Shown in pieces: positions 40,598 to 43,500 of a stretch of 64,000 nt of DNA. The position numbers are program-made. Source of the DNA: Escherichia coli (GTDB lineage: Bacteria; Pseudomonadota; Gammaproteobacteria; Enterobacterales; Enterobacteriaceae); the NCBI RefSeq assembly GCF_013122565.1, contig NZ_CP053258.1, one strand, 5' to 3'. The first letter of the stretch is position 1. Each line of letters begins with the position of its first letter.

Positions 40598-43500
40598 TAA
40601 ATTTTATACAGCATCTATCGCCGGATGCGATGTTTTGCTGAACACAGTCTGAGCCTGTAATAAACTTGTCATTTCCTGATTTTGATATGCTCATTCCAAC
40701 ATCAGAAGAAGGTTAAATTATGGATGACAAACCATTGCAGGCTCTGGCTAATAAACTCAAAACACCGGCTCAAGAAAGTCAGCGTAATGGCTTCTTCCGA
40801 CTGCAACAGGTGAAGAATAACCAGCCCCGCATTACCGGTATCCCCGTCAACCATCAGCGGCCCCAGCCTGACATCGTCTGAACATATTCCCCCACGCAAC
40901 CTGCCGCGCTGAAGTAGCCCACAGAATACGCGTTTCAGACTGCTCAGTATCTGTAGTGGCGTTTCATCCGCCTGTAGCACCGGATGCATGAGCGATTTCT
41001 TATAGTTATTCCTTTGCTTAATAACGATTATTTCCGGGTCGTTCGCTCTCGTATTTTCTTAAATACGTCAGAGCGGCCTGGGCCGTAATACAACTTGTTC
41101 AGATCTGTTACGCATGTACCAGACCCGACACGGCATTTCTGACCAGGGAAAAAGTCAACGATGAGTAGTTATATCAGCGCAAATGACGTCCTGTGGCTCC
41201 TTTTCGGTGACCACATTCACGTCTCCTGCGCTGCCAGAGGATATTTATTTCAAGGATACGTAGCATTATGGCCAGCTTTAAAGACATCCGCCCATTCGCC
41301 CCCGGCATTCCCCCATCTTCCATTAACCCAGGCGTACGCCCACCAGGGCAGTACTTCCTGCCGGTGGAACTCAAGAATGAAATTTTGCGGAACATGAAGT
41401 ATATCGGCCCGCAAATATTTAGCTGGGGTGATGACCACCGGCAGATCATTGACCTCAGTACCGCGGGCAAGGTGAAAATACATATGGTAGACAATACCAT
41501 CATCATGTTGGAGCGCCTGAATCCGAATCCGCAACATAACGAGTTCATGATGGTCGCCGAATGGTGCCAATGGGCTATGGAGCGGGATGGTTTGCAAGAA
41601 AACCTGCAAAAAAACCTGTACGAAATCCTGGAAGAAAACCAGCAAAACAAACAGTCAGAAATTCCCCAAGAAGACCTGAAAGAAAGTCTGGAAGAAATCA
41701 AGGAAAATATCCTGGAAGAAAACCTGCCAGCAAGCCGGATTGAAAACCGGGCAGAAGCATTGCGCAGATTGAAGGAATGTCTCATTACAAGACGGAGTAT
41801 GCTCAATCTTAGCAACCTTGGATTGACTTCACTCCCTGAAAATTTGCCGCCACATCTGATTGAATTTTACTGCAGTAAAAACGTGTTGACCGCGTTACCG
41901 AAGGTGATGCCAAAGTGGCTGCTGGTGCTTGACTGTACAGATAACGTCTTGATCTTGTTACCGAAGGTGCAGCCCTCAAAACTGATGGTACTGAATTGCT
42001 ATGACAACTGTATTATCTGGCTGCCTGAGCTGTCGACTAACCTGAGAGTGATTAACTGTTCTGCAAACTTCTTGCAATTTTTACCGCCGTCGATGCCCCA
42101 GTACCTGTATAAACTATCCTGTGCCGGCAACAATATTCACTCAATACCTGATGAGATGCTGGAGAACTTGACTCGCCTGAAAGTATTTGACTGTTCTAGT
42201 AACGATTTGATCTCTTCACCACGGCTGCCGCCCAAACTAATAATTTACTACTGTGGAGAAAACAAGTTTAAAACGGTACAGGTGCCGCAGCCCCAGAGCC
42301 TGAAGGTGTTTGACTGTAATGGTAACCCGTGGGACAAAGACAATTTACCGACGCTGCTCAAAGCCGTCGAGGGCCTGAAAAACCAGCAGGGTCTGGAGGA
42401 GCTTTTGGACTTTTTGCACAATGAAGGCCTGGTTGACCCGGAGGGACTGGAGAAGCTGGAGGATCTGGATGACCTTATGGATCTGGAGCTCCTGGATGAC
42501 CCGGTACTCCTGGAGCGCGTGAAGGTACAGGAGGACCTGGAGCTCTTGAATCAACAGTTGGGCCTGTTGAGTCTGGAAAGACAACAGGACTCGCAGCCTG
42601 TTAATCAACATTCTGAACATGAACCCGAATCTGCATCAAGGGTGAAGCGTGATTTATCTGAAGTCGAGTTCGAGTCAACAATGAAGCGTAAGCGTTTTAT
42701 GTAGAACACCTGTGCGGTGAGTTCCGGGGAAATAGTGTCCATCATTTTAATGGGCACTATCATGGGAAATGGCTCTTTCACATTAACAACTACAGTTGTT
42801 GCCCAGCCGGATGGATGTTTTTTTTGCAACCAGAAGACGTTGCCTCCGATCCGGCTTACAACAAGTTACACCGTCACAACCGGGACGCGTAACGCCAGCG
42901 CGCACATCAACTCATAGCCCACCGTTCCGGCAGCGGCGGCGACATCATCAATTTTGATCTCCTTGCCCCACAGCTCAACCGGCGTACCAATCCCCGCCTG
43001 CGGGCAAGGCGTTAAATCAACCGCCAGCATATCCATCGAGACGGTCCCCACCGTCATGGTGCGCACGCCGTCCACTAAAACAGGGGTACCGGTAGGCGCA
43101 TGGCGCGGATAACCGTCGGCGTATCCTGCGGCGACAATGCCGATTCGCTGTTCATCGCGCGCAGTATAGCGACCGCCGTAGCCCACACGCTCGCCCGCTT
43201 TTAGCGTCTGGACACCAATAATCTCACTGCTTAGCGTCATCACCGGACGTAATCCGGTATTGGCGATATCACGCCACTGACCGGACGGCGAAGCGCCATA
43301 CAAAATAATGCCAGGCCGAACCCAGTCAAAATGCGCTTCCGGGTGCCACAGAGTCGTCGCCGAATTGGACAACGAACGCCGACACTCCAGCCCTTCCGCC
43401 GCCTGCTCAATACGCGCCATCGCGCTGGAAATTCCATCAGGATGTTCCGCCTCGGCAAAATGCGACATCAGGGTCATTTCGCCAACATTCGCCATCGCCC

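Follow-up and report, generated by a model that had tools for sequence, protein, structure and literature searches.

A short reading frame between cvrA and dadX in Escherichia coli is very probably the decayed 5' end of an IS1414-family element

The cvrA-dadX spacer

The window, by which we mean the whole stretch of 64,000 nucleotides of Escherichia coli DNA that was analysed, carries the genes ycgR, emtA, ldcA, cvrA (38864-40600, plus strand), dadX (42866-43936, minus strand), dadA and ycgB in that order, and a spacer of 2.27 kb separates cvrA from dadX (Table 1). This spacer contains a gene for a leucine-rich-repeat (LRR) protein and, ending 386 nt before its start at 41268 and on the same strand, a reading frame of 53 codons with a Shine-Dalgarno sequence six nt upstream of its ATG. 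The frame had been predicted from the DNA alone, and we recovered its quoted translation exactly, together with the ribosome-binding site near the ATG and the shared orientation with the LRR gene, which had been placed about 390 bp downstream. It had also been described as lying at the upstream end of an inserted segment, which is roughly right, as the extra DNA in comparison with a haplotype with a short intergenic region (L012) covers 40608-42859 of the window. The G+C content of the extra DNA is 0.45-0.50, against 0.53-0.60 in the flanks. An 18-nt repeat at 40611 and 40970 was considered as a duplicated flank and set aside as probably due to chance.

Table 1. Coordinates of the features of the cvrA-dadX spacer in the window
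Feature	Position	Strand	Basis and remarks
Terminator-like hairpin and T-run just past the cvrA stop	40611-40632	+	Pattern scan only
Left terminal inverted repeat (IRL) of the IS1414-family relic, GAGCCTGTAATAAACTTGTCATTTCCTGA	40651-40679	+	Aligns to the IS1414 IRL GAGCCTGTACATAGATTTGTGTAATTGCC
Relic segment 1: IS left end, tnpA 5' untranslated region, Shine-Dalgarno, ATG and first ~12 codons	40651-40757	+	blastn
Antisense 95-codon ORF	40702-40989	-	ORF scan; annotated by PGAP instead of the plus-strand ORF in some genomes
Shine-Dalgarno sequence GAAGGT	40708-40713	+	Six nt before the ATG; inherited from IS1414 tnpA
53-codon ORF	40720-40881	+	Translation of the window; very probably a pseudo-ORF of transposase N-terminal fragments and 12 unrelated codons
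Relic segment 2: tnpA codons ~84-103 (QLVKKNQTRITGM), in frame with segment 1	40783-40841	+	blastn
Codon 27 of the 53-codon ORF: CGA in the window, TGA (nonsense) in most other carriers	40798-40800	+	Allele-specific 55-mers
YopM/SlrP/SspH-type LPX leucine-rich-repeat protein gene, no NEL ligase domain	41268-42704	+	PDB, Pfam and NCBIfam matches
Last ~24 codons of the LRR gene, the only part of it kept in K-12-type genomes	42631-42704	+	blastn against the K-12-like L001

A frame of this size is easily found in such DNA. Two ORFs of 53 codons or more lie in the 667 nt between cvrA and the LRR gene; 1000 dinucleotide shuffles of this stretch average 1.9, and since 89% of the shuffles contain at least one that is as long or longer, the length of the frame is what chance would give. 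The exact 53-aa sequence was not found in a collection of 15 billion proteins, which does hold the LRR protein of the same genome (QJU24484.1, E. coli), and this fits the claim that the frame is unannotated in this genome; alleles of it elsewhere are annotated as hypothetical proteins, for instance WP_001312759.1. Searches of Pfam and NCBIfam with the 53-aa product gave no match, and a search of Rfam with 40500-41400 (E<=1) returned only a chance match to a snoRNA, at 13.8 bits against a gathering score of 45. Literature searches on the cvrA-dadX locus, on IS1414 together with dadX, and on the RefSeq accession found nothing.

The LRR protein is 478 aa long, with an N-terminus of about 150 aa that has no domain match and an acidic C-terminus rich in Leu, Glu and Asp. 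Its matches in the PDB are YopM (2.6e-28) and the LRR domains of SlrP, SspH2 and IpaH, those in NCBIfam are only partial (SlrP and SspH2), and Pfam gives LRR_4; one source names a member of its protein cluster a putative type III effector protein. Inside the gene, at 41581-41763, a 12-nt periodicity recurs in eleven overlapping copies, which encode a stretch rich in Glu, Leu, Asn and Gln (LQENLQKNLYEILEENQQ...KESLEEIKENILEENL) just before the LRR domain. The whole segment is present in about 830 of 5,426 complete E. coli genomes, and the LRR gene in about 15%. Among species-representative genomes the gene was not found beyond E. coli, the one match being a contaminated MAG contig of E. coli DNA. 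None of the 5,426 complete RefSeq genomes has a cvrA gene more than 98.8% identical to that of the window, and in the region around the short frame the identity reaches about 96% at most, so the lineage of this strain is poorly represented among them.

Homology to IS1414

The DNA that leads into the reading frame is homologous to the left end of IS1414, an insertion sequence of the IS256 family, and we call the homologous stretch the relic. Its first segment is 85% identical by blastn to a chromosomal IS256-family copy (L003 2001-2110) and 82% to IS1414 itself (L006 300-410), the latter being an intact plasmid copy annotated as 'IS256-like element IS1414 family transposase' with an embedded astA/EAST1 gene, whose protein matches the NCBIfam model transpos_IS256 at 1.9e-128. 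The homology starts exactly at the left end of the IS, where the window reads GAGCCTGTAATAAACTTGTCATTTCC, and the inverted repeat found there corresponds to the one that in intact copies of IS1414 pairs with the right repeat (IRR), GAGCCTGTTTAGGATTCTGTGTAAATGCC. The context around the Shine-Dalgarno sequence, AATGAAGGTTAATTTATGGAC, is identical in IS1414, as is the start context, GAAGGTTAA(A/T)TTATGGA, in its tnpA gene. In a DNA search of the 5,426 complete genomes the same segment matched the starts of genes annotated as IS256 family transposase, in up to 22 places per genome, plasmids included. As this segment covers the IRL, the ribosome-binding site of tnpA and the first ~12 codons of the transposase, the ribosome-binding site and the ATG of the short frame are inherited transposase signals.

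The second segment is 81% identical both to L003 2321-2379 and to L006 643-680, and the homology stops at about 40841, about 380 nt into the IS. The same two pieces are seen at the protein level, where the 53-aa product was compared by BLASTP with the IS1414 transposase (Tnp, 402 aa): its residues 1-21 match Tnp 1-25 (E=4e-5) and its residues 3-41 match Tnp 73-103 (E=8e-6), in collinear order. Everything further into the element is gone. The embedded astA gene, in the -1 frame of tnpA, is found at L006 1088-1201, about 790-900 nt into the IS and well past the point where the homology of the relic ends; no match to the 3' end of the IS, and hence no right inverted repeat, was found in 40601-41300 even at word size 7; and no match to the Transposase_mut/IS256 catalytic core was given by Pfam or NCBIfam for the 53-aa product, in which only Tnp ~1-25 and ~84-103 are represented. 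One suggestion of the original prediction, that the frame is the remnant of a disrupted larger gene, is thereby borne out, as it is a collage from the N-terminus of an IS1414-family transposase with the left inverted repeat of the IS directly upstream.

Conservation of the reading frame among E. coli genomes

The other suggestion was that the frame encodes a small protein that was acquired together with the LRR gene, and a protein domesticated from the N-terminus of a transposase would be a variant of the same idea. To this speaks that the Shine-Dalgarno sequence and ATG are intact in the window, that PGAP calls the frame as a coding sequence in some genomes, and that intact 53-codon alleles occur in at least two divergent allele families (the type of the window, L002 and L010, and the type P0006). 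We read twelve alleles, all from E. coli (the window, L002, L007, L008, L009, L010, L011, L013, L014, L015, L016 and L017). The ATG and the first 26 codons are open in all twelve, and this counts against regarding the frame as a fossil. The full 53 codons are open behind an intact Shine-Dalgarno sequence in three of them (window, L002, L010), and in two more (L014 and L015, of the abundant P0006 type, the commonest intact family) the frame is open but the Shine-Dalgarno sequence is mutated to GAAAGT. Five alleles (L007, L008, L009, L011, L013) have CGA changed to the nonsense codon TGA at codon 27, with further damage in the form of a 1-nt deletion in L009, a 158-bp deletion in L011 and a lost stop codon in L007, and two (L016 and L017, of the P0025 type) have a +1 frameshift near codon 35. 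In none of the twelve is the frame fused to the LRR gene, a possibility that had also been raised.

A census of codon 27 in the 5,426 complete genomes, made with two 55-mers centred on the codon so that every 28-nt megablast seed spans the site, found TGA in 479 and CGA in 169. The frame is thus kept in at most about a quarter of the typed carriers (n=648), and the conservation in related genomes that a small protein would lead one to expect is not there. Nor do the substitutions give a positive sign of a coding pattern. Variable sites of the ORF fall on codon positions 1, 2 and 3 as 6/5/4, without an excess at the third position, and neither the remaining frames nor the opposite strand depart from such an even distribution. 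The ratio pN/pS, which is 0.00 for the final 100 codons of cvrA in the same set of genomes, comes to 0.49 over codons 1-26 of the frame (only about 8 variable sites) and to 0.85 among the intact alleles (very few sites); with fewer than 16 variable sites overall the test is a weak one. Relatives of the 53-aa product in protein databases are confined to E. coli, are 29-86 aa long and have about 30 N-terminal residues in common followed by scrambled C-termini. A product with no match in Pfam or NCBIfam and no database homolog outside one species, made from non-contiguous fragments of a 402-aa protein and interrupted in most of its carriers, is hardly credible as a genuine small protein, either co-acquired or domesticated.

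The antisense reading frame and its annotation

The opposite strand of the relic has a longer frame, of 95 codons, and one could ask if this is the real gene. It is annotated as a hypothetical protein (e.g. WP_001544521.1) in L007-L010 and is intact in five of eight alleles. In the other three a frameshift or deletions cut it to 37-44 codons, its SNPs are as flat by codon position as those of the sense frame (8/7/10), it overlaps the relic of the IS, and its annotated length varies by genome between 50 and 95 aa. Antisense frames of former coding sequences are often open, and that this one is the gene at the locus is so improbable that we regard it as almost certainly wrong. PGAP called the plus-strand frame in one genome, and in L007-L010 the antisense frame at 50 or 95 codons.

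Another kind of call is seen nearby. In many RefSeq genomes PGAP annotates a hypothetical protein of 46-62 aa antisense to the last codons of cvrA and flags cvrA as an incomplete pseudogene (L002 1413-1559, L004 2372-2518, L007 272-460 and L012 3322-3492, all on the minus strand and corresponding to about 40470-40660 of the window). The cvrA gene of the window is an intact ORF of 578 codons, and the antisense call looks like an artefact of annotation.

The relic and the expression of the LRR gene

The relic could also act in cis, with the former promoter and leader of tnpA driving transcription of the LRR gene and the short ORF being translated incidentally as an upstream ORF. The two are in the same orientation, and on the plus strand no terminator-like site is predicted between them (40881-41268). 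The terminator-like hairpin of cvrA lies upstream of the relic, transcription of cvrA probably ends there, to judge from this pattern, and the LRR gene would therefore need a promoter of its own. An extended -10-like motif, TGnTATGCT, can be read by eye at 40683-40691. The stretch from the IRL to the ATG is moreover the least variable part of the spacer, with 3 of 69 sites variable against 10 of 49 just upstream, which could hint at constraint, the counts being small and from one species.

Several observations point the other way. A promoter scan gave no sigma-70-like site upstream of the 53-codon ORF, and the real promoter could lie in the stretch adjoining the start of the LRR gene (40981-41267), where conservation is high too. 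The 158 bp missing in L011 lie between the relic and an LRR gene that is nevertheless annotated as intact, and the lineages of O157:H7 and K-12 have discarded the region altogether. Two smaller indels in the spacer, a 29-bp deletion (40915-40943 of the window) that is common to L010, L014 and L015, and a 19-bp segment (41093-41111) that is present only in the window and L007, add to the evidence that the interval between relic and LRR gene tolerates changes in length. We consider a role in cis quite improbable. A more specific form of it, that the dead IS end was co-opted and that its promoter, leader and upstream ORF, of 26 or 53 codons by allele, would set the expression of the LRR gene, is very improbable; if it were true, the CGA/TGA polymorphism of codon 27 would be a natural expression variant and not neutral decay.

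Other haplotypes of the spacer

The cvrA-dadX spacer of K-12 is not an empty site. In the K-12-like L001, positions 1542-1760 match 40601-40661 and 42631-42704 of the window, and the remaining ~24 codons of the LRR gene abut an inverted fragment of about 100 bp from the 5' end of an IS1414-family element, from the IRL to codon 10. PGAP annotates a partial pseudo-CDS there, which runs from the ATG of the fragment antisense into the 3' end of cvrA. Both the window and the K-12-type remnant thus have a 5' fragment of this family at the same locus, but in opposite orientations. An invertible DNA switch, in which the K-12 fragment would have been reversed between short inverted repeats, was considered and rejected on account of the identities: with L003, the chromosomal IS256-family copy, the K-12 fragment shares 97% identity and with L006, IS1414 proper, 93%, whereas with the relic of the window it shares only 85%. 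As it is so much closer to L003 than to the relic, the K-12 fragment most likely derives from a second, younger insertion, into the LRR gene, that was followed by a deletion at a microhomology, GAGCCTG. The deletion would have joined the tip of the IRL of the old relic, which has this heptamer, to tnpA codons 7-9, whose reverse complement contains it too. An intermediate with a fuller IS copy abutting the 3' end of the LRR gene was searched for with two chimeric queries and found in none of the 5,426 genomes; the first query gave one record at a coverage of at least 80%, which the second and better designed query did not confirm.

In O157:H7 the relic breaks off at 40714, six nt before its ATG. 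All that follows, as far as about 38 codons from the end of the LRR gene, is replaced by an IS3-family element with a programmed frameshift (L004 2616-3924), and the last ~38 LRR codons remain on its far side. This replacement is a third, independent destruction of the locus. In the short haplotype, finally, the convergent genes cvrA and dadX are separated by only a 43-bp hairpin (CGCTGGATACGACGCTGGTCGCATCCAGCG; L012 3458-3500), which takes the place of 40608-42859 of the window. Some 1,000 complete E. coli genomes have this haplotype, as estimated from the band of at least 99% identity, and the 3' end of cvrA is more diverged in these genomes (91.7%).

Origin of the reading frame

We are confident that the 53-codon ORF is a non-functional and neutral fossil of the 5' end of an element of the IS1414 family. 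Such an element would once have formed the border, on the side of cvrA, of the LRR segment that was acquired horizontally. The remainder of its 1.3 kb has been deleted, and with it the DDE/Transposase_mut core, the right inverted repeat and the astA gene embedded in tnpA. The internal deletions were by chance in frame, and the old start codon therefore opens a frame of 53 codons, which meets its first stop 40 nt beyond the end of the IS homology. Three independent junctions that are all in frame are a mild coincidence for a fossil, though the ORF was noticed precisely because it is open. We infer that it encodes nothing under selection and drifts neutrally, and some residual transcription from the old promoter region of tnpA may occur. 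Copies of IS1414 that decay by deletion and point mutation are common in E. coli (PMC12585946), and the relic would be one more of them.

The locus is a reason for caution in annotation, as a convincing Shine-Dalgarno sequence and ATG can be the leftover start signals of a dead transposase gene, and across hundreds of E. coli genomes pipelines label the ORF or its antisense partner inconsistently as a hypothetical protein. It also tells something of the history of the spacer, where a YopM-like LRR gene came in by horizontal transfer and has an old IS1414-family copy at its border, and of which most E. coli, K-12 and O157:H7 included, have only deletion remnants. The 53-codon ORF in itself opens no new biological question.

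Comparison with known systems

Short proteins that share the N-terminus of a transposase and act as regulators are known from other elements, such as InsA of IS1, OrfA of IS911 and the inhibitor protein of Tn5. They are conserved, are encoded by active elements and have an intact DNA-binding domain. To our knowledge no short regulator derived from a transposase has been described for the IS256 family. The 53-codon ORF is likewise short and has the N-terminus of a transposase, but it is pieced together from separate fragments, most genomes have it in broken form, and the element from which it comes is dead.

The closest comparison is with IS1414 itself, the IS256-family element with astA/EAST1 inside its transposase gene. 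The IRL, the leader of tnpA, the Shine-Dalgarno sequence, the ATG and the N-terminal codons are all homologous, at a DNA identity of 82-86%, but the relic keeps only about 190 of about 1,317 bp, and the Transposase_mut/DDE core, astA and the right inverted repeat are missing from it. Other chromosomal copies are closer to IS1414 than the relic is, which makes the relic either an old copy or one from a divergent relative. The 53-codon ORF is an already known kind of object, an ordinary fossil of a mobile element and not a new small protein.
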